The notes beneath the pieces were generated by a model, which worked only from the letters and a program-made list of their open reading frames with translations, ran no database searches and was not told where the DNA came from. Of a stretch of 64,000 bases of DNA, positions 9,630 to 63,719 are shown piece by piece (positions within the stretch are counted from its first letter, which is position 1; every line of letters begins with the position of its first letter). Both the position numbers and the translations under genes were made by a program. The DNA lies in NCBI GenBank assembly GCA_964448725.1, contig CAYVAJ010000001.1:135525-199524 (forward strand), given 5' to 3'. The DNA is from an uncultured Gammaproteobacteria bacterium (GTDB taxonomy: Bacteria; Patescibacteriota; Microgenomatia; Levybacterales; GWA1-39-11).

Positions 9630-9719
9630 CACGTCAAACGTGGCTGTCGTGTTTGACGCGATGCCATAAGACAGGATGAGAAGCCCGCCTCGATGTTCAT
9701 CGGCAGTCCCCTTGGGGGA

Positions 9720-9745: not shown

Positions 9746-9801
9746 AATACACCTTATTAACTCACTCTTATCATATATCGAAACAGTTATATAATAACAA
9801 C

Positions 9802-22350: not shown

Positions 22351-23459
22351 TAGCAGCAATTATTGTTGTGATAATTTTTGTGCTTGGATTTAAATATCTT
22401 CGAGCAGGGATTCCTTTCTTATACGAATTATTTGTAAAAAAAGATGAAATCCAACTCAAGCGAGAAGAACAACACTCATTGAATATTTTGCTACTCGGGA
22501 TAGGAGGAGCAAATCATGAAGGACCAAATCTCTCTGATACGATTATTCTTGCGAATATTAACCCCCAAAAAAATGAGGTAAATATGTTCTCTCTCCCTCG
22601 TGATCTTTGGATTCCACAATTAAAAGATAGAATTAATTCTGCCTATGCCTATGGTGAAGAAAAAGATAAAAAAGGCATGTTGTTAGCATCGACAGTTGTT
22701 GAGAAAGTAACAGGCCAGCCAGTAGACTATGTGTTCGTGATCGATTTTTCAGGTTTTGTAAAAGGAGTTGATCATATGGGAGGAATTGATGTTGAAGTTG
22801 CTCGTACATTAGATGATTATGCCTACCCTATTGCAGGAAAAGAGAATGATCTGTGTGGACATACACCTGAGGATGTGGATGCACTTGTTGCAACTGCAGA
22901 GGCAGAGCTGGGATTAGAGGTGTTCCCGTGTCGGTATAAGCATGTTCATGTTGAAAAAGGGCAACAACACATGAATGGACAGCAAGCGCTTGAGTTTGTG
23001 AGATCACGGCACGCGATTGGGGAAGAAGGATCAGATTTTGCTAGAAGTCGCCGTCAACAAGAAGTGATTGCAGCTGTTCGGAAAAAGGCGCTGTCACTGG
23101 GAATTCTGCTTAATCCAGTAAAAGTATTAGGGTTGGTAAATATTGTTCAAGAAAATATAAATACAGATATAAAAAAAGAAGAATATGATGACTTTATCAA
23201 ACTTGCAAATAAAATGGAAAATGTCACAATCAAAAGCCATGTAATTGGTATGGCAGAAAGTGATCAAGAATATGGTCTGCTCATTAACCCAACTCCATCA
23301 GAAGAATATCAGTACAAGTGGGTACTGACTCCTCGAAAAGGGAGTGGGGATTTTTCAGAATTACATGCATATATTGAGTGTGTACTAAAAGGGAATAATT
23401 GTGAAATTACTAAGACAGGAATACGTACTGCCACGGATGCGGCCTCACTAGTACATTAA
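22329..23459 (+). CDS. LytR-CpsA-Psr (LCP) family cell-wall polymer transferase
   Basis: N-terminal TM, then LNILLLGIGGANHEGPNLSDTIILANINP..FSLPRDLW, the LCP core. Overlaps tpiA stop by 22 nt. Confidence 0.85.
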   Translation: MRHKKLLIAAIIVVIIFVLGFKYLRAGIPFLYELFVKKDEIQLKREEQHSLNILLLGIGGANHEGPNLSDTIILANINPQKNEVNMFSLPRDLWIPQLKDRINSAYAYGEEKDKKGMLLASTVVEKVTGQPVDYVFVIDFSGFVKGVDHMGGIDVEVARTLDDYAYPIAGKENDLCGHTPEDVDALVATAEAELGLEVFPCRYKHVHVEKGQQHMNGQQALEFVRSRHAIGEEGSDFARSRRQQEVIAAVRKKALSLGILLNPVKVLGLVNIVQENINTDIKKEEYDDFIKLANKMENVTIKSHVIGMAESDQEYGLLINPTPSEEYQYKWVLTPRKGSGDFSELHAYIECVLKGNNCEITKTGIRTATDAASLVH

Positions 23460-28744: not shown

Positions 28745-30456
28745 AGATCAATGGTTGTTGGCGAAAAATTTATATTTTTAAATATCAAAACTTTGGGGTG
28801 ATCATATACAGTAAATGATTCATCTGCTGATTGGTCATCAATTGCAATATTGAGAATCGGGATGGTAGGATAATTGGTAAACTCAGCAACTTTTTCAAAT
28901 CCTAAATCTCCTGCAAATAACTGGTGATAGTATTGAGCTGTAGTAGGATAACATCTGCCAAGAGGAAGTTTATTGCAATCAGTCAATTTTTGAAGGGGTG
29001 TGTACAATCGATTGGAAGAGAGAATTATATAGTCTGTTTCCTGAAGATTTTCTTTCATCAATTGCCATTTTTTAACAGTATCTGGTTCATACAGGGGATA
29101 TTCGATAATATGGTAACGCTCAATACCGTAGAGTGGAAGACGATCATCCCAGTGCTCTACTCCTAGATTTTTTTCAGAGTCAATATTTTGATGTATCCAT
29201 TCAGAGGCGGCAACACGGGGATGTATGGAGAAATATATTTGTATAAATGATACTGGCCATAGTATAACGAGAAGAAAAAGAATAAAACTAGTGAATATCT
29301 TAACTGAGAGAAATGGAAGTCTTCCAATAAAAGGAAAAAATGTTTTTACGAGAGCAATACCAGCAAAAAGTGCGAGCAATGGATACAATGGAAGCATATA
29401 TCTCATCCACCCTACTGCAAAACTTCCAACAATAGCAAAATAGACGGCACAAAAAAAGATAATGCTCATAAATAAAACAGAATCTTTGTTTTTTATTCCT
29501 AGTTTAATAAACACAATACTGCCGACAAGAGAAAGAATGCTGATAGCTGGTCCCAGTCCCCAGAAGAATACGTTTTGTATCTCATACAAATACGGAATTT
29601 TTCCGACATACTGCAATGTATAAGGGAAAGTAAACGCACTTCTTGTCATTTCTGATTGAGCAGTAGTATCACTGATAAATGAAGAAAAATCTATCAATGC
29701 GTATGGTTGGCAAATAATTGTTGTAATACAAGCAAGAAGTAGAAAAGTAAGGGTGTTTTTTATGAGTTGTGACCAGTATTTTAAGGAAGTAATTGTTTTT
29801 AACTTTTTAGTATTTAATGAATGCAGCGGTAAAAGTAAGAAAATAATACCTAACGGTAATAATAGTGGTGCTGCGCTAATTTTTGTTGATATTGCACAAC
29901 CAAAACTTACAGCTGATGCAATAAGATATTTTTTTTCGTGTGTGGCAAAAAACTTAAGTCCACAGTACAATGTTCCCATCATAAAAAATGTAAGTAACAC
30001 ATCAACAACATAAAAATGAGAAGTTTGGATAGGAAGAACACTTATTGCATAAATAAATGCAGCAGCATACCCAACATACTTTGAAAATAAGAATCTCCCA
30101 AAAAGAAAAACAAGCACCATCGTTCCAACATCTACAAAAGCAGACAAATTTCTACCCACCATGAGCTGATACATGAAATTTTGGAAATCAGGATTATTAA
30201 GTGCTGCAAGCTGAATAAAGAATTTCAATAGATATATTGGCAGGCTTCCATAGGCAAAAAAATGTGGGTTAAGAGGGCTTTGTATTGAAAGGAATTCAGA
30301 GATAGATTGTGGAAGTGAAATATTTCCTATTATCATTACAATTGCCCGTTCATCAGGATGCAAACTATATCCATGATCCCAGTAGATTGATAGTACCCTC
30401 AGGAGAAAGGCAAGAGCGCAAAGAAGAAAAAGAATAATAAATGATTTAACGTTCAT
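28741..30456 (-). CDS. GT-C-like membrane glycosyltransferase paralogue (HPDER motif)
   Basis: Polytopic, 571 aa. First loop YSLHPDERAIV. Paralogous to 30446..32110 (shared HPDER, PHFFAYGSLPIY). C-terminal soluble domain. Confidence 0.6.
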   Translation of the reverse strand: MNVKSFIILFLLCALAFLLRVLSIYWDHGYSLHPDERAIVMIIGNISLPQSISEFLSIQSPLNPHFFAYGSLPIYLLKFFIQLAALNNPDFQNFMYQLMVGRNLSAFVDVGTMVLVFLFGRFLFSKYVGYAAAFIYAISVLPIQTSHFYVVDVLLTFFMMGTLYCGLKFFATHEKKYLIASAVSFGCAISTKISAAPLLLPLGIIFLLLPLHSLNTKKLKTITSLKYWSQLIKNTLTFLLLACITTIICQPYALIDFSSFISDTTAQSEMTRSAFTFPYTLQYVGKIPYLYEIQNVFFWGLGPAISILSLVGSIVFIKLGIKNKDSVLFMSIIFFCAVYFAIVGSFAVGWMRYMLPLYPLLALFAGIALVKTFFPFIGRLPFLSVKIFTSFILFLLVILWPVSFIQIYFSIHPRVAASEWIHQNIDSEKNLGVEHWDDRLPLYGIERYHIIEYPLYEPDTVKKWQLMKENLQETDYIILSSNRLYTPLQKLTDCNKLPLGRCYPTTAQYYHQLFAGDLGFEKVAEFTNYPTIPILNIAIDDQSADESFTVYDHPKVLIFKNINFSPTTIDL

Positions 30457-32110
30457 GATTTATTTTGAATATAGATACTGTCGGTCTGTCAAATACATTT
30501 GCAGTATCCTCTACTCCATATACTGGATCGCCAAGGTACAGTATTTTACAAAAAAAATCACAAGGTGTTTGATAAACCTGAGTAAAACGGGTGCTTGATA
30601 TCAGTGAAGAATAGAACATATGTCCATGAGGAAAATTCTGAGGATTATCAAGTCGTGATTTTATGATCCGTTGACTGGGAAGGATAATTATATCGTGATT
30701 TGATACTTCATGTGAGAGTGTATTTGCAAGATCTGGATTGTGTTCAAGATCATAAAAATTAAATAAAGAGATATGAGTAAATTTTTCATTAAAAGGCATA
30801 ATTCCGAGATCATAAACCTCAGAGAGTATTTTTGTTTCTTGAGAAAATATTTCATTTGCATAGATTGCAGCAGTAGTTCGTGTGTCTGGCTCTATATAGA
30901 CAGTTTTCAGTAATGCTGCTGTCCAGAGAACGCTTGATACCATTGCTACTCCTGTAATTAAGTAATGAATATTTTTAGTGAGATGTTTTTTTGAAAGCAC
31001 TGAAAGAGACAGTGCAACAATAAGGTATATAACAGGAAGCAGAGGAACAAAATAGCGAGTCCATTTTACAAAAAATACAAGTTGCGGAATTAATAAGAAT
31101 AGAAAAAAGAAAATGAGTAACGAAGTTTTGGAGTCTCTTTTTTTTAATTCGTATAAGAGAATAATAATAAATGCTGGTACAAAAATAGCAGCGATGAATG
31201 GATTGAGTAAATAAGGCAGTACATATAGTGCCTGATATATTCCGGGAATAGTATCGGTAAAGGTACCTGTATAAAAAACAGGAAGTGTTCCTAATGCGAC
31301 AGCAGATTCATATTGCATTGATCCACGAAATGCAGACCAGTCAAGAAAGGAAAATGGATTTGTGAGTATAAATATACCAATACAGATTGCTGCAAGTATT
31401 CCTGTGTTTGTACCTATTTTTTTAATAAGAGTAAGACGATTCCTTTTCGTTTTACTTGATCTTTTATTTTTTATTACTGTCAGGCTTACCAGTATTGGCA
31501 GTGGGAAAAGTGCAAGTGAAGATATTTTGATTGAAATAAGTATGCCAAGTGTTATACAAGTAAAGAGAAAATAACGATGGTGAGATGTTTTTAGATAGAG
31601 GACTAATTGATAAAGCAGTAATAATGAAAAGAATGTAAGATACATCTCAAAAGTACCAAAATGTGCGTATTGGATAAGTCCGACACTCAGAGTTGATAAA
31701 AAAACAGTAATAAGAGCGAATTTCTTGGAGATATAGTGAAGGGCTGTGAAATAGAGAAGAGCTAGGGTGCCAATACTTAGTCCAGCTGAAAAAAATCGTC
31801 CAATAATAATGGCTTGTTCAAATGATACATTCCAAATATCATTCTGCTGAAAAAGAAAGGTCATGCTATTAATAATGACGCCAGTGAAATAGATACTGTA
31901 AATTGGCAGACTTCCATAGGCAAAAAAATGTGGATTTAATTGTTCAGGTGCATAGAGCTGACTAATTGATGATGCAATATTGCGTTCATCAGGATGAAAA
32001 TAAAAAGGAGCACCCCAATTGAGATCGTAAAATCGCAGAAACACTGCTACTGCTAATAAAAAGATAAGTATGAAGTGACTGTTTTTTATATATGTAAAAA
32101 AAGACTTCAT
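30446..32110 (-). CDS. GT-C-like membrane glycosyltransferase paralogue (HPDER motif)
   Basis: YFHPDERNIASS and PHFFAYGSLPIY shared with the upstream paralogue. Polytopic, 554 aa. Confidence 0.6.
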   Translation of the reverse strand: MKSFFTYIKNSHFILIFLLAVAVFLRFYDLNWGAPFYFHPDERNIASSISQLYAPEQLNPHFFAYGSLPIYSIYFTGVIINSMTFLFQQNDIWNVSFEQAIIIGRFFSAGLSIGTLALLYFTALHYISKKFALITVFLSTLSVGLIQYAHFGTFEMYLTFFSLLLLYQLVLYLKTSHHRYFLFTCITLGILISIKISSLALFPLPILVSLTVIKNKRSSKTKRNRLTLIKKIGTNTGILAAICIGIFILTNPFSFLDWSAFRGSMQYESAVALGTLPVFYTGTFTDTIPGIYQALYVLPYLLNPFIAAIFVPAFIIILLYELKKRDSKTSLLIFFFLFLLIPQLVFFVKWTRYFVPLLPVIYLIVALSLSVLSKKHLTKNIHYLITGVAMVSSVLWTAALLKTVYIEPDTRTTAAIYANEIFSQETKILSEVYDLGIMPFNEKFTHISLFNFYDLEHNPDLANTLSHEVSNHDIIILPSQRIIKSRLDNPQNFPHGHMFYSSLISSTRFTQVYQTPCDFFCKILYLGDPVYGVEDTANVFDRPTVSIFKINHER

Positions 32111-33441: not shown

Positions 33442-34824
33442 TTACCCAAGGATAAAAAGTAAAGTGGCTCCTGTTACGATCAGTATAACAGACCCAAATG
33501 TTATAAGCAGTGTAGAAACACTTCCAGGTGGCGTTGGAGTTATTGTAATAATTGGTTGTATTGTAGGTATTGGAGTGGCTGTAGGAATTACAGTAGGTAT
33601 TGCTGTAGGAATTACAGTAGGAGTAGGGGTAACTGTCTCTGTCACTGTTGGAGAGGGCATAACTGTTGTTGTAGGAGAAGGCTCTGCTGTTGGAGTAGGT
33701 GTGCGTGTTGGAGTGAGAGTAGCTGAGGGTGTTGCAGTCTCTGCTACTTGTGATCCTGCAGGGAAAATTAAAAAATCATGAGTTACTGCTTTTGTTACAC
33801 CATAAGAATCTTTTGCTTGCGCAGTAATGGTATTTTTTCCTTGAGGTAGTGGACTATCTGGTCTGAACTGCCACTGTCCTGTTGAACTGGTAGTAACAGT
33901 AGTTGTAAGATTGCTTGGTTCAAGAAAAAGAGAGACGGTTGTTCGAGGAGCTGCAGTTCCCTTGATCAGTGGTTGATCATCAATAGTTGATTCTCCAATC
34001 ACTGGATTGGTAATACGTACTGTTGATTGTATAGTACTTGGAGTTGGAATTGTTAATTGTGCCTCACTTGTTGCTTCTGGTGTATCTGGAGCGATTACCG
34101 AAAAATCATAATTTTGGGAAAGAGTAAGTGGAGGAATTTCAAAAATATTTTCATAATTAACGGTTGCTCGTGATGCAAGATCAGCACTATATGCGGCAAT
34201 AGTAAATGTGGTGTGTCTAGTAAAATCAACATATTTTGAAAGGTCACGTGATTTTAATCGTGATATGTCAAAAATGTACTCCCCCTCACCATTAGTTAGT
34301 ATACTCAGTATTTGTGAATCAGTACTTTGTAATGTGACTAAAACATTTGTACCTATTGACCCATCAGTATTAATTATTTTTCCTGTTACCGGAAGCGTGT
34401 TTATCTCGGTATCTTCCAGTAAAGGTGCAGTTGTTACCCTATATGGCTCTTCGTTGTCCCGAAAGGTTTTTCCTTCAAGTAATATTACATACTCATACTC
34501 TGTTGATGGACTGAGATTGGGGATAGTTATCCGATGTGTTGTTCGCGCTTCTGGAGATGAGTTTTGAAAAAAGACAGAGGTAGGAAGTGTTGATCCTGAT
34601 ACTTGAACACCGGCAACGGACTCTGTTTTAGTAGTAAAAGCAATGGTAAAGGTATCGTGTGCAAGATCAGTGACATATATATTTTGTGGTTGAGTGTCAG
34701 AGGAGGCTTGTCCTACAGTTCCTGTTTGTTGTACCACAAAATACCGAGTCAGAAAAATACTTCCTGCAATAAGAAGCAGAGCAAAAAGAGTTGGTATGCG
34801 GATTTCCCATAGTGGTTTTTTCAT
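33442..34824 (-). CDS. Cell-surface protein: N-terminal signal/anchor, beta-rich domains, Pro/Thr-rich linker and C-terminal TM anchor
   Basis: N-terminal hydrophobic segment. Long TPTPT/PTV repeat region. C-terminal VSTLLITFGSVILIVTGATLLFILG. Confidence 0.65.
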   Translation of the reverse strand: MKKPLWEIRIPTLFALLLIAGSIFLTRYFVVQQTGTVGQASSDTQPQNIYVTDLAHDTFTIAFTTKTESVAGVQVSGSTLPTSVFFQNSSPEARTTHRITIPNLSPSTEYEYVILLEGKTFRDNEEPYRVTTAPLLEDTEINTLPVTGKIINTDGSIGTNVLVTLQSTDSQILSILTNGEGEYIFDISRLKSRDLSKYVDFTRHTTFTIAAYSADLASRATVNYENIFEIPPLTLSQNYDFSVIAPDTPEATSEAQLTIPTPSTIQSTVRITNPVIGESTIDDQPLIKGTAAPRTTVSLFLEPSNLTTTVTTSSTGQWQFRPDSPLPQGKNTITAQAKDSYGVTKAVTHDFLIFPAGSQVAETATPSATLTPTRTPTPTAEPSPTTTVMPSPTVTETVTPTPTVIPTAIPTVIPTATPIPTIQPIITITPTPPGSVSTLLITFGSVILIVTGATLLFILG

Positions 34825-38494: not shown

Positions 38495-40232
38495 CTTTGC
38501 AATTATCGCGCATGTTGATCATGGTAAGTCAACGCTTGCTGACCGTTTGCTTGAAATTACCGGTACAATTCCTGCTGAACAATTACAAGAACAGTTTCTT
38601 GACTCAAATCCAATATCTCGTGAACGTGGTATTACCATTAAATTGGCTCCTGTGAGGATGAGTTATACATCCAAAGGAACAGAGTATCAGCTTAATCTCA
38701 TTGATACTCCTGGACACGTAGATTTTTCCTATGAAGTAGTTCGTACTATGAATGCGTGTGAAGGGGCAATACTTCTTGTTGATGCCACCAAAGGTATTCA
38801 GGCTCAGACAATCGCAAATTATAACTTTGCAAAACGGCTCAATTTGACCATAATTCCAGTGGTTAACAAAATTGATCTCCCATCAGCAAATGTAGAAAAA
38901 GTAATGGCTGATATGGAAAGTCTTGGATTTGCAGAAAGAGATATTTTAAAAATATCGGCTAAAACAGGTCTTGGTGTTAAAGAGTTGCTTGACACTGTTG
39001 TGTCTCTTGTTCCACCTCCAGACGGAGATCGTGATGTTGATACACAGGCTCTTATTTTTGATTCTGTTTATGATGAACATAAAGGTATTGTAATTTATGT
39101 GAGACTTAAAAACGGAACAATAAAAAAAGGAGATGAGATAACATTTCTTTCAGATAACTCAACAGCTGTTGTTCTTGATGTAGGATATATGAAGCCAACA
39201 TATAGCTCAACTCAGTCACTTGATAATGGAGAAGTAGGGTATGTAATTACAAATATAAAAGACATTACTCAAGCGAAAGTTGGAGATACCATCACGTTAC
39301 GCGGACAACAGCCAGCTATGCTCCCAGGCTATAAGCCGTTAAAACCCTTTGTGTTTTTGAGTATTTATCCAGCAACAAATGCAGAGTTCCAAAATTTGCG
39401 TAAGGCACTTCATACGTTAAAACTGACTGATGCATCATTGGTATTTACTCCTGAGCAATCCTCGCTATTTGGACCAGGGTTTCGATGCGGATTTTTAGGA
39501 CTGCTCCATGCACAGATTATTATTGAACGGCTCGAACGTGAATATAACCTTGATGTATTTACCGCACCGCCGAGTATTGAATACAGTGTTGATGGAGAAA
39601 AAATATCAAATCCAAAAGACTTTGATATTTCGAAAAAAGATATACAGGAGCCATTTATGCTTGCTGAAATTTATACTCCTCAGGAATATCTTGGACAAAT
39701 ACTTGAGCTTATTTATGCTCGCCGTGGAGAACAGCAAGATATTGCTTACTACTCTTCTCAAGTTCGTGTCACTTTTGTAATGCCGCTTGCAAATGTTATT
39801 TATGATTTTTTTGATAAAGTTAAGTCAGTCTCATCTGGATTTGCTTCGTTTGATTACGAATTTTTAGAGTATCGTCCGTCTGATTTAGTGCGGGTTGATA
39901 TTTCGGTTAATGATCAGATTATTCCAGAGCTGTCGTTTATTGTGCATAGGTCAGAAAGTGATTATTTTGGCCGTAGAATTGTAGAGCTTTTATCAAAAGA
40001 AATTCCTAAACATCAATTTGTTATTGCTGTTCGGGCAAACATTGGTTCGCGAGTAATTGCCAGTGAAAAAATTGCAGCTTTATCGAAAAATGTTACCGCA
40101 AAACTGTATGGCGGCGATGTAACCCGCAAAAATAAACTACTAGACAAGCAAAAAGAAGGAAAAAAGAAAATGAAGACAATTGGACGAGTATCAGTCCCTA
40201 AAGAGGCGTTTTTATCTGTTCTGAAGGTTTAG
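38472..40232 (+). CDS. lepA: Elongation factor 4 (LepA)
   Basis: IRNFAIIAHVDHGKSTLADRLL G-domain, DTPGHVDF, NKID, and LepA-specific C-terminal domain. Confidence 0.95.
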   Translation: MDQKLIRNFAIIAHVDHGKSTLADRLLEITGTIPAEQLQEQFLDSNPISRERGITIKLAPVRMSYTSKGTEYQLNLIDTPGHVDFSYEVVRTMNACEGAILLVDATKGIQAQTIANYNFAKRLNLTIIPVVNKIDLPSANVEKVMADMESLGFAERDILKISAKTGLGVKELLDTVVSLVPPPDGDRDVDTQALIFDSVYDEHKGIVIYVRLKNGTIKKGDEITFLSDNSTAVVLDVGYMKPTYSSTQSLDNGEVGYVITNIKDITQAKVGDTITLRGQQPAMLPGYKPLKPFVFLSIYPATNAEFQNLRKALHTLKLTDASLVFTPEQSSLFGPGFRCGFLGLLHAQIIIERLEREYNLDVFTAPPSIEYSVDGEKISNPKDFDISKKDIQEPFMLAEIYTPQEYLGQILELIYARRGEQQDIAYYSSQVRVTFVMPLANVIYDFFDKVKSVSSGFASFDYEFLEYRPSDLVRVDISVNDQIIPELSFIVHRSESDYFGRRIVELLSKEIPKHQFVIAVRANIGSRVIASEKIAALSKNVTAKLYGGDVTRKNKLLDKQKEGKKKMKTIGRVSVPKEAFLSVLKV

Positions 40233-40788
40233 GCACAGTAAGACTTTTTTTCACTTCAAAATATTTAAATCTATCTATCTGATTCCAAAGATAGGCATAC
40301 ACAACAAAAGACGGAATCAGTGAACAAACAATAATCCAGCCGAGCCAGAAAAAATAATGAATTAAAATATCTGGATTAATGGTTATTTTATCTAACGAAT
40401 TTACAATATCATTAGTGGATAAAGAAAGAAGATAAATTCCAAATAAGAGTTCAGACCAGAAATTTATAAGCATAAAGGTAATAATGGGGAACACAGCGAA
40501 GAATGGCAGAAAAGCAAGTATTCGAAGCGCGTATAGACTCCATCTTGTGTATACATACAGGCAGGCAAAAACGAACAAGAACGAAAGGACAGAGAACCAA
40601 TCATACCACCATAATGGGAAAGTATAGCCCCAATAGGTTTTGATAAACACAAGTGGAATTAAGAGAAATATCCACTGAATCACCTTTACGCTTCGCGGTT
40701 TGGCGCTGTGAATTTGCAAAACAAAAAAGATGAGTTGAAGGATGTTTTTCTTTATGTCTGGTCGAGAAGCTTTACTTTCTGGTTGCAT
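40198..40788 (-). CDS. Polytopic membrane protein, hypothetical
   Basis: 196 aa, 5-6 hydrophobic helices. 3' end overlaps the lepA 3' end by 35 nt (convergent). Confidence 0.5.
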   Translation of the reverse strand: MQPESKASRPDIKKNILQLIFFVLQIHSAKPRSVKVIQWIFLLIPLVFIKTYWGYTFPLWWYDWFSVLSFLFVFACLYVYTRWSLYALRILAFLPFFAVFPIITFMLINFWSELLFGIYLLSLSTNDIVNSLDKITINPDILIHYFFWLGWIIVCSLIPSFVVYAYLWNQIDRFKYFEVKKSLTVPKPSEQIKTPL

Positions 40789-40793: not shown

Positions 40794-41912
40794 TTAAAGT
40801 AAGAACAGCAGTACTCCCCCGATAATGGTAAGTATTACCGCCCCACCGATTCCTATAGCTGTTCCAATTGATCCAGGAGGTGCTAGAGTCGGCACAACTG
40901 TTGCTGGAATGTCAGTTGGTGAAACAGGCATTTGGGCACTTGGTGATCCTTCTTCAACAGTAACAGGCTGAGTACAGGATATACTAGTTCCTCCTCTATC
41001 GTCTGTAAAGATAACTGTTGCTGAATGTGAGCCAGTAATTGTATATGTGTGGCTCTGTTGTACCGATGCTGATGCGCTGCCAAGACCTGCGGTAACATCT
41101 ACTACTTGTCCATCTCCAAAGTTAAATGTAGCTTTTACAATCTGACCATCAGAATCATTACCAGTTGCAGTAAACTGGGATGTAAGCGGTGCTGAGCCAC
41201 TTGCAGGTATTACCGTAAGATTAGTACAGACTGGTACGATATTTGGAATAAGAGTAGGCGAAGGAGACGGTGTTCTTGAGGGAGTTGCCGATGGAGTTGC
41301 AGATGGGGTTGCAGTTGGTGATGGTGTGCCACCTCCTGTTCCATCAAGTATAGTGATGAGCGCAGGGGTTGTATTAACGAGGACATTTTCTCCTGGGTTA
41401 TCATCGGTTGCGATTGAGAGTACCTGTGTAGATCCTGGAAATTCAAAGGCTACTTGTGTTGGTGTCTCTGTCTTTTCTAAGGCTTCCAGCTCAATAGTCG
41501 CAACTTTAAATGGTTGATTGAAACTTTGAGTGGGATCGTATCCAGTTAGCGCTTTGTTAATTCCAAACTCTACACTTGCACTTCCACTTGTAATTGTTGG
41601 TCCGGAAAGTGTAGTAGAAATATTCTGTGAATCAGGAGTAATCTGAGAAATTGCCACTTTTTCTGCATCATAATTCAGTGAGAACTTGACGAATGAAGGA
41701 ATATTATTGCCTGGGTCTAACATAACATCAATGGTAAAAATTTCACCGACTGTAACAGTATTCTTTGAAGTTATAAGTGAAAGGTTACTTGATGGGGCAG
41801 CGCTACTTCTTAGATCTTGTTGTTGTTTTACAAAAAAGAGTGTGAGTGGAATTGTTATTAATAGTAGAACAAGAATCCCAATAAGAAAGAACTGTTTCCC
41901 GTTTAATTTCAT
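40794..41912 (-). CDS. Surface-anchored protein with N-terminal cohesin-like module, PT/PS-rich linker, a second beta domain and C-terminal TM anchor
   Basis: Signal peptide with extended c-region PLTLFFVKQQQDLRSSAA. Module TVTVGEIFTIDVML..FVKFSLNYDAEKVAISQI..FKVATIELEALEKT fits the cohesin beta-sandwich pattern. TPSPTATPSATPSATPSRTPSPSPT linker. C-terminal GGAVILTIIGGVLLFLL. Confidence 0.55.
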   Translation of the reverse strand: MKLNGKQFFLIGILVLLLITIPLTLFFVKQQQDLRSSAAPSSNLSLITSKNTVTVGEIFTIDVMLDPGNNIPSFVKFSLNYDAEKVAISQITPDSQNISTTLSGPTITSGSASVEFGINKALTGYDPTQSFNQPFKVATIELEALEKTETPTQVAFEFPGSTQVLSIATDDNPGENVLVNTTPALITILDGTGGGTPSPTATPSATPSATPSRTPSPSPTLIPNIVPVCTNLTVIPASGSAPLTSQFTATGNDSDGQIVKATFNFGDGQVVDVTAGLGSASASVQQSHTYTITGSHSATVIFTDDRGGTSISCTQPVTVEEGSPSAQMPVSPTDIPATVVPTLAPPGSIGTAIGIGGAVILTIIGGVLLFLL

Positions 41913-49395: not shown

Positions 49396-50336
49396 GACAC
49401 TCTCATATCTACTACCTCTTAAAATTGCTTCGTCCACGTCAGTGGATTAAAAACCTCGCTCTTTTTGCAGGAATTACCTTTAGCGGACAACTCTTTGAAG
49501 CAGATGCCCTTAGTCGTGTTGCAGTTGCCTTTCTCGCTTTCTGTTTTCTATCATCAGCCACCTATATTATTAATGATGTGCTGGATCTAAAAAAAGATCG
49601 ACTGCACCCATTTAAAAAAATGCGCCCACTTGCGAGCGGAAGAATTCAGATGTTTGAGGCTGCAATATTGTTTGCTGTGCTTCTTTCTTCTGCACTGATT
49701 TTAGCCAAGGGGTTAGGAGGATTATTTATCTTTATTGCCATTATCTATTTAACACTTCAGATTGCGTACTCATTGGTATTCAAAGGTGTGGTAATTTTTG
49801 ATATCTTTTTTATTGCTTCAGGGTATATTTTGCGCGTGTTGGCAGGAGGAGAGATTGTGAACTATCATATCTCTGTATGGCTACTTCTTACTACTGTTTC
49901 TCTCTCTCTCTTCCTCGCAGTTGGAAAGCGCAGGTCTGAGTTAACACTTTTGCGGAACATAAAAGGATCAAAAATTATGGAGATTCGTCAAAGTCTTTCC
50001 CATTATTCAGAAAATTTACTTGATGCATATACTGCTATTTTTGCAACTACTGCAATTATGTTTTATACCATGTTCACTTTTCTGGAGCATCCCCGTGGTA
50101 TACGTATAACACTTGAGTTATTATTGCCTGAATTTTTGCCTTACTACTTGCAAAGGAAATGGCTGATGATAACGATTCTTCCAGTAATTTATGGCATTAT
50201 GCGTTATATGCAGGATATTTATGAAAAAAGTGAGGGAGAAAGTCCTGACCGGGTATTACTCGCCGATAAAGCACTTCTTGCTTCAGTCATATCATGGGTG
50301 TTGATGGTCATTTTTATTATATACTTTATTGGGTAA
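49392..50336 (+). CDS. UbiA-family prenyltransferase resembling decaprenyl-phosphate 5-phosphoribosyltransferase (DPPR synthase)
   Basis: YIINDVLDLKKDRLHPFKKMRPLASG (NDxxDxxxD..K..RP.A.G) matches the DPPR-synthase subgroup of UbiA. 8-9 TMs. Confidence 0.7.
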   Translation: MRHSHIYYLLKLLRPRQWIKNLALFAGITFSGQLFEADALSRVAVAFLAFCFLSSATYIINDVLDLKKDRLHPFKKMRPLASGRIQMFEAAILFAVLLSSALILAKGLGGLFIFIAIIYLTLQIAYSLVFKGVVIFDIFFIASGYILRVLAGGEIVNYHISVWLLLTTVSLSLFLAVGKRRSELTLLRNIKGSKIMEIRQSLSHYSENLLDAYTAIFATTAIMFYTMFTFLEHPRGIRITLELLLPEFLPYYLQRKWLMITILPVIYGIMRYMQDIYEKSEGESPDRVLLADKALLASVISWVLMVIFIIYFIG

Positions 50337-51204
50337 TTTCAGTAACATAGTTCCCGCTTACCCAGCCTGATTCTCCATTATCTAAAGTGATTTTATACCA
50401 TCCATTCTGTGTATCGGTATAAGGAAATATTTCTCCAGGGTCAACTGTAGTAATCTGTCGACCAGCAGTTGATGGAGTAGATCGTACTCGTAAAAAACCT
50501 ACTGAATTCTCATCAATTTCAACTTTCTGTGCAATACTTTCTTCATCTTCTGATAGTTCATCATCTGTCTCAGTAGGTGTAGGAGTTGGGCTTACTTTTT
50601 CAAGGGTAGATTCATCTTCAGCTGATTCTGTGCCAAGATATGCTGAAACAACCAGCTTATATTCAGGAACGGTTCTAACTCTGATAGTTTTCTTAGCAAA
50701 TCCATCCTTTTGAATTTCTATTTCATGCTCTGAAGGTGAGATAGATTCCATAAAATAAGGACTAGTTCCACGTGGTGTACTGTCGACCGCAACCATGGCA
50801 GAGTTAGGAAGCGTACCAACAAAGAGCTGTGGTTCTTTTTCAGCTATTTTTTCAAGAGTTAATATATATGCACTTGCGAGAGATCCTGGTAAGAATGTTC
50901 GTTCAACAGCAGTCAGTACGCCTGGTGTTACGGTTACTTTGACGACAAAGGGTGTAAACTGTGTGTCTTCAGGAACAATCTTTACGGTATATTCTCCTTG
51001 TGTGATGGTATTGTTCTGTTCACACTTACATACTGGTGTCTGTCCGAGTAACTTGTCATCAAGATATACTGAGCTTTTTATATTTGCAGTTACTTGTAGT
51101 GCTCCTTGTCCTGATGGTCGTACATTCTGTATTACTTGGGTGAGAAGGAATAATCCGATAAGAATAAGAATAACAGCCAAGACCAGGAGGAAATTTCGTT
51201 TCAT
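50326..51204 (-). CDS. Secreted/anchored protein with PEGA-like repeats and C-terminal SH3b-like domain
   Basis: Signal/anchor MKRNFLLVLAVILILIGLFLL. PEGA-like YTVKIVPEDTQFTPFVV and EHEIEIQKDGFAKKTIRV. C-terminal GFLRVRS..GWYKITLDNGESGWVSGNYV (bacterial SH3). Confidence 0.55.
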   Translation of the reverse strand: MKRNFLLVLAVILILIGLFLLTQVIQNVRPSGQGALQVTANIKSSVYLDDKLLGQTPVCKCEQNNTITQGEYTVKIVPEDTQFTPFVVKVTVTPGVLTAVERTFLPGSLASAYILTLEKIAEKEPQLFVGTLPNSAMVAVDSTPRGTSPYFMESISPSEHEIEIQKDGFAKKTIRVRTVPEYKLVVSAYLGTESAEDESTLEKVSPTPTPTETDDELSEDEESIAQKVEIDENSVGFLRVRSTPSTAGRQITTVDPGEIFPYTDTQNGWYKITLDNGESGWVSGNYVTEITQ

Positions 51205-53832: not shown

Positions 53833-56169
53833 ATGATGGACGGATTTAATCATTTTGTGACCTCTCTTTTTTCCTCTTCTAAAAAAATGGCAGGCATGGT
53901 CATCATTCTTCTTATCGCAGTAGCCGTTCCAGTAACGCTTGGCCTTTTAAAGCAAAATCAGGATATCAGACAGGAAGCAGCGACAAACCTTACTTGTACG
54001 CTTCTTCCGCTTGAAAAATTATCTAACACTTCTTTTAAAGCAACTGTAGAGTTTAATGGAAGTGGTGCGCAAAACTACAGCACATTTGATTGGAAGCTCC
54101 ACTACTCAGATGGAACAGAAATTCCAAATAAACGTGTATGGACAGCAAAGCCTAACGATCCACCTGCCACTCATAATTTTCAAAATTTAGAATCAGGGAA
54201 ATCATATGCGTTGGTAGTACAGTTTACAAAAGCTAATGGAGGAGATCCATTTCCTTGTGGAACACAACATATCACTTTAAGTTCTAATAATGATCAGAAC
54301 CAAAATAATAACAATAATAGTGGAACAGTCCCCACCATTAACCCTTCAAATGCGCCATTTGTTCAAAACTTTGAAGTAAGACCTTCAGAGGTAAAGGAAA
54401 ATACAAAAACTGAAATTCTTATTCCATTGCCATCTGGACGTGCTGTGACAGAGTATGCTATTTATATTCACGGAACAAACCAACCTAAACCACTCCAAGC
54501 CTCTCAAAATAATTATAACCCTGATAATGTCGGTGCAGATACATTTTATAGGTTAAATACCCCTGGGTCATCAACTGCTAGATTTTCTGCTCCTGCAAAA
54601 GCTGGAACATATTATATTGCAGTCAATGCTGTAACAGGAGCATATATCTGTTCTTGGGATGGAAAAATCTATTATAGAAATCCGAATACTGGACAGGTAG
54701 AAGCTACAGGACAAACGTGCCAAAATAGTCTCAAGACCCTTAAAGTAACATCTTCAACTTCAGGAGGTGTTGGAGGACAAGCAAGCTGTACTCTTGATGT
54801 GTCAAGTGCCGTTCCAAATATAATTCGTGCCTCAGTTTCAGCGACAAATTTTTCATCTGAATATAATCGTATCCGTTGGAGGATATATAACTCTGGTGGC
54901 TCATTGGTAAAAGACGAACACACAACAGCAGATCCTAATTTTACTACTCCTATGTCTCAACAGTTCCCTAATATAGAAGCAGGAAGGTACGATGTTATTG
55001 CAGAGTATTATTCTACCCAATCACTTCCTGCTATTCTTTGCGGCAATAAGTCTGTTACTGTATCAGATCCAGTTGATCCTGGGACAAATAACCCAGGAAC
55101 AAATGATCCTGGGACAAGTAACCCAGGGACTAATAATCCTGGTGGATGGGATCCGGGTTCAGGCTTTCCTGGTGGCAATCCAGGAGGAATTGGCGGTGGT
55201 CCTATTAGTTCGCTTTTCTCTATTAAAGGTACTGTATTTGTAGATGCCAATAAAAACAAGAGGATGGATAGTGGGGAAAAAGGTTTTGAAGGTGCTACAG
55301 TTAAAGCATATGGCACCCAGGTTAATACCGATTCATCAGGTAAGTATAGTATTCCTGTAAGTGGTTTGACTATGAGTACATTAGAACTCACTGTCCCCCC
55401 TTGTTATACTGCCACGACTGATACGAGCATACGGGTAAGTCCACTTAGTTTTGGTGATATAAATTTTGGTATCATGCCATCTACTGGAGCAGGATGTGGT
55501 ACAACTCCTACTGTTACTCCTACGGTTACTACGACTCCTGTCCCTGCTTGTGGTGCAACGTGTGCAAGTAGTGCAGCATGTGCTGGTGCAGCAAACGGTT
55601 GTTCTACCTGCGTGACAGGAAGCAATGGTCAGAAGACTTGCCAGGCATCTACGAATACGAATCAAATTAACCTTGCAGTCTCTGTAGAGATGCCAGGTAT
55701 TGGTACGAGGACAGGAGATAATAGAAATCCAGCACGTACTACAAGAACCGGAAAAGTAGAGGTATACAATACTCAAAATGAGAAAGTAAAAGAAGGAGAT
55801 ATTAACTTTACCTTTACATTGGCAAGTCAATCAGCAGTGTATAACGGAACTGTTGAGATGACAAATATGGCAGAAGGGACATATTATGTAAAAGTTCGTT
55901 TTGACAATACAGTGTTTGAACAGCTTCCAGGGGTATATAATCTGAAAAAAGGCAATAATACACTTCCTACGATTGCGCTTGCACCTGGAGATCTAAACCA
56001 GGATAATAACCTGGACATGCAAGATTACTCAGTTTTTGTCAGCTGCTATGGAGATAAGAATTGTGGAGACAATACGAAAAAATTGGCTGACTTTAACGAT
56101 GATGGAAAAGTAGATGGAGTAGATTATAATATACTTATTCGGTCATTTGCGATTCGCTCAGGAGACTAA
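53833..56169 (+). CDS. Large secreted multidomain protein: two homologous Cys-pair beta modules, Pro/Gly/Asn-rich linker, CarboxypepD_reg/SdrD-B-like domain, Cys-rich segment, and C-terminal dockerin-like duplicated Ca-binding repeat
   Basis: Signal peptide with extended c-region VPVTLGLLKQNQDIRQEAA. Internal repeat (LTCTLLP..FDWKLHYSDG..FPCGTQHITL versus SCTLDVS..IRWRIYNSGG..LCGNKSVTV). GTNNPGTNDPGTSNPGTNNPGG linker. SIKGTVFVDANKNKRMDSGEKGFEGATVKAYG. C-terminal DLNQDNNLDMQD and DFNDDGKVDGVD loops. Confidence 0.7.
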   Translation: MMDGFNHFVTSLFSSSKKMAGMVIILLIAVAVPVTLGLLKQNQDIRQEAATNLTCTLLPLEKLSNTSFKATVEFNGSGAQNYSTFDWKLHYSDGTEIPNKRVWTAKPNDPPATHNFQNLESGKSYALVVQFTKANGGDPFPCGTQHITLSSNNDQNQNNNNNSGTVPTINPSNAPFVQNFEVRPSEVKENTKTEILIPLPSGRAVTEYAIYIHGTNQPKPLQASQNNYNPDNVGADTFYRLNTPGSSTARFSAPAKAGTYYIAVNAVTGAYICSWDGKIYYRNPNTGQVEATGQTCQNSLKTLKVTSSTSGGVGGQASCTLDVSSAVPNIIRASVSATNFSSEYNRIRWRIYNSGGSLVKDEHTTADPNFTTPMSQQFPNIEAGRYDVIAEYYSTQSLPAILCGNKSVTVSDPVDPGTNNPGTNDPGTSNPGTNNPGGWDPGSGFPGGNPGGIGGGPISSLFSIKGTVFVDANKNKRMDSGEKGFEGATVKAYGTQVNTDSSGKYSIPVSGLTMSTLELTVPPCYTATTDTSIRVSPLSFGDINFGIMPSTGAGCGTTPTVTPTVTTTPVPACGATCASSAACAGAANGCSTCVTGSNGQKTCQASTNTNQINLAVSVEMPGIGTRTGDNRNPARTTRTGKVEVYNTQNEKVKEGDINFTFTLASQSAVYNGTVEMTNMAEGTYYVKVRFDNTVFEQLPGVYNLKKGNNTLPTIALAPGDLNQDNNLDMQDYSVFVSCYGDKNCGDNTKKLADFNDDGKVDGVDYNILIRSFAIRSGD

Positions 56170-56173
56170 TATT

Positions 56174-56770
56174 ATGCCAAGAAGAACAGTTATACTTATC
56201 ATTATTCTTACAATACTCACTGGTGTGTTAGTCTTTCTTGCTGTGCAAAATGAACAGCGTAAAGTACAAGCGCCTGATATGACAGTGGGAACAGAATCTC
56301 CTACGCAGCAACCAGTATCCAAAACGGCTACTGTTTCATTTGATCCAATGAGTGTCCAGGCAGTTGCTTCGACACGATCAGCATCAACAGTTGATGTTAT
56401 TCTTGATAGTAAAGAACATACAATTGATAGTATTCAGTTAGAGTTTGTGTATGATCCGGCAATTCTTTCCAACGTAACAGTTGTTGCACCAGAATCGAAT
56501 TTTTTTGGAGATCAGGGAAGTTATACTGTTTTTCCTTTGTCAGATGATCCGCAAAGAGGCAGAGCCTCATATGCTGTTGGGATAAGTCCTGAGAGGGAAG
56601 CACGGCAAGGTATTGGAGTAGTTGCTCAGATATCATTCTCTGTAAATCCTCAATCTACTGCTTCTGCAACCGAAATCCAGGTATTAGATCGTTCTATGGC
56701 AAATGAACCAAATAGCCATCAAAGTGTGCTTGCACCGGTAGAACCTCTCACTATTACAATTGTGCGTTAA
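56174..56770 (+). CDS. Membrane-anchored cohesin-like domain protein
   Basis: N-terminal anchor IIILTILTGVLVFLAVQNEQRKVQAP. Ectodomain TATVSFDPMSVQAV..IDSIQLEFVYDPAILSNVTVV..GSYTVFPL..ASYAVGIS..GVVAQISFSVNP fits the type-I cohesin pattern. ATG 56174 chosen (GGAGA SD 9 nt upstream) over track start 56147. Confidence 0.55.
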   Translation: MPRRTVILIIILTILTGVLVFLAVQNEQRKVQAPDMTVGTESPTQQPVSKTATVSFDPMSVQAVASTRSASTVDVILDSKEHTIDSIQLEFVYDPAILSNVTVVAPESNFFGDQGSYTVFPLSDDPQRGRASYAVGISPEREARQGIGVVAQISFSVNPQSTASATEIQVLDRSMANEPNSHQSVLAPVEPLTITIVR

Positions 56771-56777: not shown

Positions 56778-57539
56778 ATGAAAAATATATTATCTCAACT
56801 TTCACAGATGCTTTCTGGACATACTCGAATAATTCCTATCTTAGGGGTGTTGGCCTTAGTGCTTGCTCTTCCGTTAACTCTGAGTCTTCTGGAACAAAAT
56901 CAAGATAATCGTCAGCAGGCTGCAGGCACAGAGGAGCAGTTATTCTCACAAGCAGACCCAAGTGCAAGTTCATCTGCTACAACTTGTGCTTCAGTAGGAG
57001 GAGAGTGTGTTGCTGATTCAGAATGGGTAAATTCACAAGCCCTTTTTGCCGCAGCATCTGTAGATGGAACGTATTCATGTCCTAGAACTGGTGATGTATG
57101 TGTCGTGCAGAAGCGGCCGACTGTTGAAAATCAAACATGCACGGGAAGCTGCGATATATCAAGTTCTATGTGTGAAGCAAATGGAGGTATTGTGACATCA
57201 GATACTTGTCATAATAAAAATCTGTGCTGTATGGTTCCATCTCAACCTGAACCTACTATAACATATCCTCCTCTAGGTAGTGCATGTTCTGATGGATCTG
57301 GAAATTTTTCATGCGGATTTGGTACTACTGACACAGAATGTCCTGTATGTAGCCCAGTTGCTGATTGTAGCACAGGAAATTATTCTATATTAAGTTGTTC
57401 AGGAACAGCAGTATGTACACAAGATTCAGATTGTGCTAACAATCCCCCAAGCTGTCCTGCTGGAAAAACAGGGACAGTTGTGTGTAATATTCCTTCTGGT
57501 CAAACACAAGGAAGCTGTCAGACGGTAAACTGCAAGTAG
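56778..57539 (+). CDS. Secreted cysteine-rich protein (about 30 Cys in about 200 mature residues)
   Basis: Signal peptide IIPILGVLALVLALPLTLSLLEQNQDNRQQAAG. Mature region dense in Cys-spaced motifs (CxxxxxECV, SCPRTGDVCVV, CTGSCD, LCCMVP, CPVCSPVADC, CSGTAVCTQDSDC). Confidence 0.6.
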   Translation: MKNILSQLSQMLSGHTRIIPILGVLALVLALPLTLSLLEQNQDNRQQAAGTEEQLFSQADPSASSSATTCASVGGECVADSEWVNSQALFAAASVDGTYSCPRTGDVCVVQKRPTVENQTCTGSCDISSSMCEANGGIVTSDTCHNKNLCCMVPSQPEPTITYPPLGSACSDGSGNFSCGFGTTDTECPVCSPVADCSTGNYSILSCSGTAVCTQDSDCANNPPSCPAGKTGTVVCNIPSGQTQGSCQTVNCK

Positions 57540-61349: not shown

Positions 61350-63719
61350 ATGAAAAAATTTCTGCCCAAAATTGTATTAGTTTTCTTCTTTTCTTTTGTT
61401 TTCCTTGTATTTGGAACAACTATTCATGCAAGTGGTCCTGCAACTCCTGCTCCTTCTGAGGTTTCTGTTGAGGACTGGGTAGAAGATCCAGAGGTTACAT
61501 TTGTGGGAAAAGCAGCAAATCGTGCCAATGATTTTTTGAACTGGACGCTGCAGAATTATGACTGGTTATGTGTACAAAAAGTAAATGATACTTGTGATAA
61601 TAGCGATAATCCACTTGTTGAATTTTGGGCACTTGTCCGCAATATCGTATACGCATTAATGCTCTTATTTGTACTCGGAACTGCGTTTGTAATCATTATC
61701 ACGCGTGGCCAAAATATTACCATAATGCGATTTGTTCCTCGATTTATCGCAATTATTGTGCTCGTAACCTTATCGTTTGCACTTGTACAGTTCTTATATG
61801 TTTTCATTGATATAATTCAAGGATTTTTCCTCAAGCCTGACGGGAAGATAATCTCATCAGCAGATCTTTTGTACATTGCTTTTCCATATGAATTTACTGG
61901 TTATCGTGCGGTAAGTGCTGCCAATGATGAGTCAGCTTTTATTTCCTTGTTGCTTATTAAGCTTACTGCAATCACCTATTATGTGATGACAGGAGTGCTG
62001 TTAGTACGAAAAATTATTTTATGGTTTTTCCTTATTGTCTCTCCTATTTTTCCATTACTTATTTTTTATAGTCCTATTCGTAACACTGCAAAAATCTGGG
62101 TTGGTGAATTTTTCCGATGGCTTCTGTATGCGCCGCTTTTTGCACTTTTCTTGCACGGATTAGTGGTAATGTGGAGAGATAAAATCCCATTAGCATTTGA
62201 TTTTACCACTCGTGTACCAGGAACAGATATACTCTATCCTACTTCAATAAATATTCTCCTTGGTGGTCCTGGTCAGGATATTGGATTCTATAATTCAGTA
62301 AACTTACCTGATACTTTTGCCCTGTATGTTGTAGCACTCATTATGCTTTGGGTAGTTATTTTACTACCATTTTTGCTACTTCGTATTTTTCTCGATTATT
62401 TGAATTCAGTTTCTATTGGCGGATTTATGTCAAAACAGGTTAATAAAAATTTCGCATTTTTGAATCCAAGAAGTCCATCAGGAGGACCTATGCCACCACC
62501 GCCGCCTGGAAAGGTGTTCCCTACTGGTATGGCTCGTCAATTGCCATTTTTGAATAAGCGTGGTGCGACAATTGAGGCAGGACGTCCTCTCGCTACAAAT
62601 ACGAATGTTCGATCAACAGTAAGTCAGCCAGCTGCAGTTCGTGAAGTAAATGATGTATTGAAGTCAATTAATATTAGTGTGCCAAAAATGCAGGATGTGG
62701 TGAAATATGAACGAGCACTCTTGAGCAATAATGTTACTGAAAGACAGCAAGCAACGCAGTTGAACGAGACATTAGCAAAGATTGCAAATCCAGCAAATGT
62801 TACATCTATTACTGAACGTCAACAATTCAGCCAAGTACATGAAAAATTAAAGAGTCAGCAAGATCGAGGTAATCCGCTTGCAACCTCTATTTTGACAGCT
62901 GCGGTGAAAACAACAGTAACACATAAAGTTGACGTTGACCAGCAACTGAGAACAATGCTGCAGCAGTTGTCCAATCCATCCATTTCCAATCCAAAACTGA
63001 GAACTAAGATGACAACACTTAAATCTCAGTTGTTAGGGGCACAGCAAGGAGGGAATAATCTTGCAACAACAGTGCTGTCTGTTTCTGAAAAAATACAGAA
63101 AAAAGAACTCTCTCCTGAACAAGAAAAAGTAGCAATTGAAGAAATTAAGAACAAAATTGAGGAACAAAAACAAGCAGAAGATCCAGTAGCACAATCAGTT
63201 GTCACAACGATGCAGGAAGCACAAGAAGTGACTGCAACACAATCACTGCCAGTTGTAAATCGAGTGCAACAAGTCAGCATTGAGGACTATGAAGAGGTAC
63301 GCAAGATGTGGGTAGAAAACTATGAAACCTTGGAACCTCCAACAACATTAGAAGGTAAACAGCTTGAGCGTGAGGAATGGGTTAACAGCGATATACAAAA
63401 AATTAATGAAGCGATCACATTACTTTCTTCTGTTGAACCTGAAAAAGTAACTGAAGGAATGGATATGGTAGGAAGCATTTTGCCATTCCTGCTTATGGGA
63501 GGATTCTCAAAATCAGAAGTTGTTGCCTATCTCAAGGCAAAACTTGCAGCAGCAAAATCAATTGTAGAGGCAAATCGTAAGAAACAAGAAGAAGAAGACA
63601 TGATGCTGGATCGCAAGGAAGCAACAACAGAGGCAAAACAAATGACTATGCAGAGAGAAGCAGAACTACCGCAGACACCAAAAGAACTTGGTCCAGACGA
63701 TGAATCTCAACAGTCATAG
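61350..63719 (+). CDS. Large polytopic membrane protein with long Gln/Glu-rich coiled-coil C-terminal domain, possibly VirB6/TrbL-like
   Basis: Signal-like N-terminus, 6-7 TMs in aa 90-350, PPPPPG segment, then about 400 aa low-complexity/coiled-coil with internal repeats (GNPLATSILTAAVKTTV / GNNLATTVLSVSEKIQ). Confidence 0.4.
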   Translation: MKKFLPKIVLVFFFSFVFLVFGTTIHASGPATPAPSEVSVEDWVEDPEVTFVGKAANRANDFLNWTLQNYDWLCVQKVNDTCDNSDNPLVEFWALVRNIVYALMLLFVLGTAFVIIITRGQNITIMRFVPRFIAIIVLVTLSFALVQFLYVFIDIIQGFFLKPDGKIISSADLLYIAFPYEFTGYRAVSAANDESAFISLLLIKLTAITYYVMTGVLLVRKIILWFFLIVSPIFPLLIFYSPIRNTAKIWVGEFFRWLLYAPLFALFLHGLVVMWRDKIPLAFDFTTRVPGTDILYPTSINILLGGPGQDIGFYNSVNLPDTFALYVVALIMLWVVILLPFLLLRIFLDYLNSVSIGGFMSKQVNKNFAFLNPRSPSGGPMPPPPPGKVFPTGMARQLPFLNKRGATIEAGRPLATNTNVRSTVSQPAAVREVNDVLKSINISVPKMQDVVKYERALLSNNVTERQQATQLNETLAKIANPANVTSITERQQFSQVHEKLKSQQDRGNPLATSILTAAVKTTVTHKVDVDQQLRTMLQQLSNPSISNPKLRTKMTTLKSQLLGAQQGGNNLATTVLSVSEKIQKKELSPEQEKVAIEEIKNKIEEQKQAEDPVAQSVVTTMQEAQEVTATQSLPVVNRVQQVSIEDYEEVRKMWVENYETLEPPTTLEGKQLEREEWVNSDIQKINEAITLLSSVEPEKVTEGMDMVGSILPFLLMGGFSKSEVVAYLKAKLAAAKSIVEANRKKQEEEDMMLDRKEATTEAKQMTMQREAELPQTPKELGPDDESQQS

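Follow-up and report, generated by a model that had tools for sequence, protein, structure and literature searches.

The signal peptides of some Firmicutes surface proteins carry conserved motifs, YSIRK-G/S and KxYKxGKxW, which are not needed by Sec and mark classes of wall-anchored proteins; the signal of GspB, an accessory-Sec substrate, is roughly 90 residues long. The surface proteins of candidate phyla radiation (CPR) bacteria, which are thought to live attached to other cells, are mostly unannotated. Here we analyze a 64,000-nucleotide stretch of DNA (hereafter, the window) from an assembly deposited as an uncultured gammaproteobacterium and placed by GTDB among the Levybacterales (Patescibacteriota; Microgenomatia; GWA1-39-11), namely positions 135,525 to 199,524 (forward strand) of contig CAYVAJ010000001.1 in GCA_964448725.1. 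Three proteins encoded in the window start with an element that has the layout of an N-in/C-out export signal, with basic residues before a hydrophobic helix and a conserved polar block after it. We consider it reasonably probable that this element represents a Sec-type signal peptide domain, conserved in and specific to a class of cell-surface proteins of Microgenomates-type bacteria (CPR/Patescibacteria), with the signal peptide classes of Firmicutes named above as its apparent nearest functional analogues.

The comparisons were made on 71 signals, non-redundant at 60% identity, with positions counted from the [IVL] residue (0) that precedes an invariant Pro (+1). Like YSIRK-G/S (TIGR01168), the element is a conserved motif within an otherwise ordinary Sec signal peptide of a class of cell-surface proteins, many of which have a C-terminal LPXTG-type anchor, and motif-less signal peptides coexist in the genome. 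However, the YSIRK motif is located at the n/h boundary, whereas here the conserved part encompasses the C-terminal half of the h-region and the c-region; the lineages differ as well (Firmicutes versus Microgenomates-type), a YSIRK-like string is found in 0 of the 71 signals, and the isolated N-termini produced no match to this class in NCBIfam at E<=10. The accessory-Sec signals with KxYKxGKxW (GspB, TIGR03715) are also unusually long, conserved in sequence and present on adhesin-like proteins, and the length of the GspB signal is a precedent for the long-tailed family described below. By contrast, the part that is conserved here faces the trans side of the membrane; the KxYKxGKxW motif is absent from the inspected n-regions, there is no NCBIfam match, and no SecA2/SecY2 genes were seen nearby. 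The SipW-cognate signals of TasA and TapA (TIGR04088) likewise make up a class recognizable by sequence conservation around the site of cleavage but are encoded beside their dedicated peptidase, SipW, whereas no peptidase gene is adjacent here; the TIGR04088 model gave no match.

More generally, no Pfam or NCBIfam model covers these N-termini, in searches with whole proteins or, for NCBIfam (E<=10), with isolated N-terminal peptides. Full-text literature searches found no description of the motif, although such absence is not proof of novelty. Signals of the other export routes are not apparent among the 71 sequences: RR occurs in one n-region and the twin-arginine-like pattern [ST]-R-R-x-F-L-K in none, there is no lipobox of the signal peptidase II type (0/71), and the type IV pilin (class III) pattern G|F-[ST]-L-x-E is absent as well (0/71), the conserved residues here being after the helix rather than before it.

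Three surface proteins of the window share the element

The window has a G+C content of 36.8%, and its genes fit a CPR/Patescibacteria genome, including many PMT-like glycosyltransferases, pilN/pilO, murJ, lepA, groES/EL and hrcA-grpE-dnaK. In the six-frame translation, the strict pattern P[VL]TL..[LF][LV][KE]Q[NQ]QD.R has exactly three matches, all directly following a hydrophobic stretch at the start of an open reading frame (ORF), and the same three sites are matched when the shared residues are back-translated into a degenerate DNA pattern, with zero matches expected from 100 dinucleotide-preserving shuffles. The element is 38-49 residues long in these ORFs, which encode three unrelated surface proteins.

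The first gene (53833..56169, + strand) encodes a 778-aa surface protein with an SdrD_B-like domain and a C-terminal type I dockerin (Pfam Dockerin_1, 1.2e-6; SdrD_B, 4.8e-4); a C-terminal membrane tail is absent from this protein. In its signal element (residues 1-49; 53833..53979, +), a long n-region with SSKK at its end is followed by the span MAGMVIILLIAVAVPVTLGLL and then by KQNQDIRQEA; the invariant Ala is A49, and the alternative cleavage register A-A-T ends at nucleotide 53985. Positions 53893-53990 encode residues 21-53, that is, the h-region plus the motif, and the orthologues of this protein (P0204 and L165) retain the element. The second gene (56778..57539, +) encodes a 253-aa Cys-rich secreted protein without a recognizable Pfam or NCBIfam domain; its element (residues 1-48; 56778..56921, +) comprises ..GHTR, the span IIPILGVLALVLALPLTLSLL and EQNQDNRQQA, with the invariant Ala at A48 and the canonical A-A-G register ending at nucleotide 56927. 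The third gene (40794..41912, - strand) encodes a 372-aa protein with a cohesin-like domain, PKD domains matched in Pfam and, at the C-terminus, L-A-P-P-G-S followed by a hydrophobic tail; many of its 87 homologues are precomputed as PF00963 Cohesin, and a syntenic orthologue is present in GCA_964537315.1. In this case, the element (residues 1-38; 41799..41912, -) starts with MKLNGKQ, continues with the span FFLIGILVLLLITIPLTLFFV and ends with KQQQDLRSSA, the invariant Ala being A38.

Membership was assessed with an independent hidden Markov model (HMM) of 36 columns, which was built only from non-redundant instances outside the window and searched against all 621 stop-to-stop segments of the window. 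The 40794, 53833 and 56778 proteins score 61.4, 36.5 and 34.5 bits, respectively (E-values from 1.5e-18 to 2.6e-10), the next best segment scores 6.2 bits, and reversed-sequence controls do not exceed 3.5 bits, so that the model separates the three ORFs from the remaining segments and from the controls. An earlier note on this DNA had described the motif in at least four proteins and weaker versions in two more. The motif shared by the cohesin, dockerin and Cys-rich proteins is borne out by both the exact matches and the HMM scores, but the count is three. The 198-aa exported protein encoded between the two adjacent motif genes (56174..56770, +; N-terminus ..VLVFLAVQNEQRKVQAP) scores -0.9 bits; the PEGA and SH3 domain protein (50326..51204, -; Pfam matches), the N-terminus of which, ..LFLLTQVIQNVRPSGQGA, keeps its form in the orthologue from a relative (L201), scores 0.7 bits; and the Big_13/fn3-like protein encoded downstream of pilN-pilO (33442..34824, -), with C-terminal T-P-P-G-S and a hydrophobic tail, scores 3.3 bits. 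These three candidates were rejected because their scores are no higher than those of the reversed controls or of an ordinary membrane anchor (4.0 bits for that of the LytR-family protein encoded at 22329). The positional counterparts of 33442 in the pilN-pilO operon of other loci (L180, L184, L120 and L110) have a different conserved N-terminus, ..IKNGPDFFLKASP. The 56174 protein has no Pfam match; by eye, its sequence is similar to the first part of the cohesin-like domain of 40794. Two proteins encoded in the same window, 61350 and 2767, have short, classical signal peptides that lack the motif, and thus, the motif marks a class of proteins rather than the general signal peptide style of the organism.

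The element heads numerous unrelated proteins and is not a recent duplication

A full-length search with the 40794 protein retrieved 87 homologues, down to about 27-35% identity; the few that are named come from Candidatus Levybacteria, Candidatus Woesebacteria and "Patescibacteria group". An exact-sequence look-up retrieved no record of the 40794 protein. The N-terminal element is kept, at the same distance from the start, by nearly all full-length homologues. A profile limited to the N-terminus (39 positions), applied to 1.84 billion representatives of 50% identity clusters, retrieved 1130 representatives at E<=1e-3 and 122 at E<=1e-10, and in all 150 matches listed, the match starts within the first 35 residues. 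The number 1130 is a lower bound because the two divergent copies of the window (~35 bits) rank among the weakest accepted matches, so that many comparable variants would be missed. A scan of a metagenome collection with the back-translated DNA pattern yielded at least 120 loci. Among the 122 matches listed, 92 are true instances, in which the Pro is preceded by a hydrophobic helix and the Q block is followed by R..A, and about 30 are chance matches, many of them in high-G+C contigs.

The true instances, among the matches listed, correspond to 75 unique proteins that form at least 16 groups by their first mature domain: 40 proteins with a cohesin-like domain, one 13-member family of small Cys-rich proteins and 14 smaller groups. 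The first domain was used for grouping; single-linkage clustering of the mature regions merged all the proteins via PT-rich linkers and PKD domains. The domains found behind the signal include cohesin, PKD, dockerin, cupredoxin, VWA and several Cys-rich modules, as well as a CHRD-like region (judged by eye) combined with a dockerin, and many of the proteins have no Pfam match. The motif genes tend to cluster: in about 30 of 95 loci, two or three are adjacent, as are 53833 and 56778 in the window. Thus, the notion of a lineage-specific shared signal, put forward in the earlier note, is supported: the signal is lineage-wide, and the surface proteins that share it are non-homologous.

It is highly improbable that such similarity stems from common descent or from one recently duplicated 5' cassette and nothing else, the element serving only for ordinary secretion. 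About half of the instances belong to a single large family, the members of which have a cohesin-like domain at the N-terminus and could have simply inherited the signal, but the element also precedes the other, unrelated first domains. The three window copies are only 46-53% identical in nucleotide sequence across 32 core codons, the longest nucleotide run in common is 6-8 nucleotides, and different codons are used at 8-10 of the 12-15 residues shared between copies. The similarity is therefore upheld at the protein level, and a recent duplication of the 5' end of one gene, the alternative raised in the earlier note, is excluded. Furthermore, among 50 orthologues of the 40794 protein, the helix and the polar segment show mean pairwise identities of 50% and 53%, respectively (48-53% for the signal), compared to 37% for the cohesin-like domain and 41% for the whole mature part. 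Ordinary signal peptides evolve faster than the mature protein, so the pattern observed here is the opposite. Taken together, these observations largely refute the explanation by descent or duplication alone.

Anatomy of the element

The element consists of a basic n-region, an uncharged span of about 21 residues that includes [IVL]-P-[LV]-T, the polar block [KQE]Q[QN]Q[DE]xR and, finally, Ala. The consensus of the span contains A-I-P-[LVI]-T-[VLI]-[YF]-[LF]-[VL] and is followed by [QK]-Q-Q-Q-[ED]-x-R-[SQT]-x and the Ala at +17. Upstream of the Pro, Lys occupies positions -15 and -14 in 69% and 54% of the 71 signals, respectively (Arg in 5% and 22%), Gly is found at -9 in 60%, Leu at -4 and -3 in 67% and 76%, Ala at -1 in 59%, and Ile at 0 in 74%. 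The Pro at +1 is present in 100% of the signals and is followed by Thr at +3 (87%), Tyr (42%) or Phe (32%) at +5, Gln (42%) or Lys (39%) at +8, Gln at +9 to +11 (76%, 67% and 90%), Glu (36%) or Asp (29%) at +12, Arg at +14 (69%), Ser (57%), Gln (19%), Thr (9%) or Lys (8%) at +15 and Ala at +17 (100%). The P, T and Q residues and the R were partly imposed by the search patterns, whereas the K-K pair, the Gly at -9 and the Ala at +17 were not. The uncharged span around the Pro (-13..+7) has a median length of 21 residues, and the polar segment from the end of the span (+7) to the invariant Ala (+17) is 10 residues long. The information content of the element is comparable to that of curated signal-peptide domains.

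An AlphaFold2 model of the 40794 protein, obtained with a 50-sequence alignment (mean predicted local distance difference test score 85), consists of one continuous helix at residues 5-34, which includes the membrane span and KQQQDL, a coil at residues 35-41 (RSSAAPS) and then a beta-sandwich. The invariant small residue lies in this predicted coil, just past the helix.

Predicted export and cleavage

As in generic Sec signals processed by signal peptidase I, a basic n-region precedes a hydrophobic core; unlike in such signals, the sequence is more conserved than that of the mature protein. At the potential site, 50 of the 71 signals conform to the -3/-1 rule (small residues) for cleavage after +17, 29 for cleavage after +19, 59 in either register and 12 in neither. 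The site is mostly S-x-A, whereas in the subtype that includes 53833 and 56778, it reads R-Q-x-A-A-[GT], where the Q at -3 is non-canonical and A-A-[GST] two residues downstream fits better; Pro is not among the common residues at +18. To judge from the sequence, signal peptidase I would most likely cut at the invariant Ala or two residues past it. The earlier note had posited an AxA-type site 12-14 residues past the hydrophobic core: the long polar segment stands, although its length is 10, but a strict AxA does not.

These features can be combined into a putative export route. Judging by the positive-inside pattern and the structure model, the basic n-region would stay in the cytoplasm while the long helix spans the membrane, reaching about 1.5 turns outside as KQQQ[DE]L before it breaks. 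S-x-A or, in the R-Q-x-A-A subtype, A-A-[GST] would then be presented to type I signal peptidase, which would free the mature protein; in the R-[QK]-x-A-A-[GST] subtype, including 53833 and 56778, the cut would be made two residues later. Proteins of the cohesin type would stay on the cell through the C-terminal L-[AP]-P-[TP]-G and hydrophobic tail, and those of the dockerin type, such as 53833, could bind anchored cohesins, such as 40794.

Several observations weigh against this interpretation. Twelve of the 71 signals fit neither register, and about 27% have Q or K at -3 in the main one. The uncharged span of 21-22 residues has the length of a membrane anchor rather than that of a typical h-region (roughly 10-15 residues), and the site is 10 residues past the span, compared to a usual c-region of roughly 3-7 residues. 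In a family of 13 proteins, the element lies 80-146 residues into the sequence, where it looks rather like an internal signal-anchor. The taxonomic restriction is drawn from only a few named homologues, and cleavage is a prediction from the sequence and the model.

Some of these features would be accounted for if the element were an uncleaved type II signal-anchor, with the Q-rich juxtamembrane helix as a stalk or interaction site, for example, for oligomerization, retention at a specific envelope site or contact with the cell wall or pilus machinery; the stretch ..QQQDLRSSAAPSS.. would then be retained uncut in the mature protein. The length of the span, the continuous 30-residue helix in the AlphaFold2 model and the frequent Q or K at -3 all agree with an anchor, as does this family of 13, which has a conserved, presumably cytoplasmic region of 80-140 residues before the helix, typical of bitopic membrane proteins, and is encoded in the pilN-pilO operon at several loci. 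However, 230 of the 268 complete members have a separate C-terminal hydrophobic tail, preceded by [LIVM][APS][PATS][TP]G in 114 of the 230, and would be pinned to the membrane at both ends. Most of the tail-less members end in a dockerin, which would be redundant on a membrane-anchored protein, so that cleavage fits the architecture. In addition, the invariant small residue with another small residue two positions away, in a predicted coil, has the appearance of a peptidase site. On balance, we regard an uncleaved anchor as rather unlikely and favor a cleaved signal peptide.

Candidate readers of the motif

The conservation of the invariant P-x-T and of the Q block is well in excess of what Sec targeting requires. 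This suggests an additional constraint or, probably, a reader, for which a particular peptidase, the site of secretion and cleavage timing are candidates. A tentative and more far-reaching proposal, which we consider possible but doubtful, is that I-P-x-T ... QQQ[DE]xR-S-x-A is an unrecognized N-terminal sorting domain of Microgenomates that marks cohesin, dockerin and Cys-rich surface proteins and is read by a dedicated partner. Candidate partners would be a specialized signal peptidase, an intramembrane protease with the Pro-containing helix as its substrate, or a factor directing secretion to a particular site, such as the zone of contact with the host cell or the pilus base.

In its narrower form, with a signal peptidase paralogue or another membrane protease reading P-x-T / QQQ..R..A in the manner of SipW and the TasA-type signals, a dedicated enzyme seems distinctly unlikely. 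The high information content, the restriction of the motif to one class of proteins within a single genome window and the clustering of the motif genes would all be expected of an enzyme-specific signal, and the Pro in the helix could suit an intramembrane or signal-peptide peptidase. However, Pfam searches detected no S26 signal peptidase, sortase, rhomboid or other peptidase in the window, and regular expressions for the S26 boxes and the sortase TLxTC, admittedly a crude test, gave no credible match across the roughly 700 kb that surround 127 motif ORFs; the S26 boxes were not detected in the window either. The most common neighbors of the motif genes are instead housekeeping, glycosyltransferase or pilus genes (lepA, groEL, murJ, pilN/O, UbiA and glycosyltransferases). 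The dedicated peptidase envisaged in the earlier note is thus unsupported in the loci covered. The anchoring pathway proposed in the same note appears chemically unlikely for a cut at the N-terminus because it would be the signal peptide, not the mature protein, that an acyl-enzyme carries. A sortase family has been reported to occur almost ubiquitously among Microgenomates (Méheust et al. 2019, PMC6744442); this fits the C-terminal tails but has no bearing on the N-terminal element.

Between lepA and the 40794 gene, ORF 40198-40788 (-) encodes a 196-aa multi-pass membrane protein without a family match. This ORF was considered as a partner gene and rejected: it is absent from the syntenic relative GCA_964537315.1, where lepA follows the 40794 orthologue after 5 nucleotides.

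Long-tailed variants, C-terminal tails and gene neighborhoods

The 13 proteins of the long-tailed family (208-276 aa) share a conserved start of the form MDNLP.DKNQ and a tail of 80-140 residues, rich in Pro, Glu and Thr and presumably located in the cytoplasm. A KSKKGKKIK cluster comes next, followed by the motif helix and an ectodomain that is small and Cys-rich; the proteins have no Pfam match. The respective genes, found at L101, L107, L110, L112, L117, L119, L120, L143 and other loci (for example, L120:1505-2221, -), are always followed by a second, Cys-rich motif-bearing gene. At several loci, the operon consists of rpsT, pilN, pilO, a gene for a small transmembrane protein, a gene for a ~465-aa fn3-like protein, the long-tail gene, its Cys-rich partner and genes for an amine oxidase and PMT-like transferases. 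Compared with L180, L184, L120 and L110, the window contains the same operon (from 36387 down to 32149, -) without the long-tail and partner genes; at other Microgenomates-type loci, two motif genes are located between those for the fn3 protein (~460 aa, fn3/Big_13) and the oxidase.

At the opposite end of many of these proteins, we observed a conserved C-terminal element, [LI]-[AP]-P-[TP]-G-[SP], followed after about 4 residues by a Gly-rich hydrophobic tail of ~20 residues ending in ..FAL, ..LAL or ..FLL. In the window, such tails are encoded at 40797-40880 and 33445-33534 (both -), and others are found in P0001-P0087, P0219, P0221, L108 and L166. The element is similar to an LAxTG/LPXTG sortase signal, except that the customary basic tail is missing, with K or R among the last 5 residues in only 5 of 230 tails, and the tails match no LPXTG model in NCBIfam. 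It may be a distinct CPR sorting signal.

Among the other genes of the window, at least four encode PMT_2/PMT-type (GT39-like) glycosyltransferases and one a DUF2298 membrane protein (17316-18692, 23456-25594 and 27197-32110). The presence of glycosyltransferases near surface proteins with long Pro/Thr-rich linkers hints at O-glycosylation of the linkers. The window also encodes a TrwB/TraG-type coupling-protein ATPase (6622-9024, -), a TraX-family protein (9676-10485, +) and a large multi-pass membrane protein (61350-63719, +), the signal peptide of which is classical. These proteins may belong to a type IV secretion or conjugation-like system.

Implications for CPR surface proteomes

Class-specific signal peptides are known as a kind of thing; what is new is this high-information element. 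The analysis supports and extends the view of a lineage-specific shared signal and does not support a dedicated protease or anchoring pathway. Given that neither Pfam nor NCBIfam contains a corresponding model, the element is a natural candidate for a curated signal-domain model. Its main use would be as a handle on the surface proteomes of CPR bacteria, which such a tag would allow one to list directly from metagenomes; already, it picks out more than 1000 clusters of cohesin, dockerin, PKD and Cys-rich proteins. The tag would also define a cellulosome-like cohesin-dockerin surface system in Microgenomates and would let phylogenetic profiling seek the machinery that reads it.

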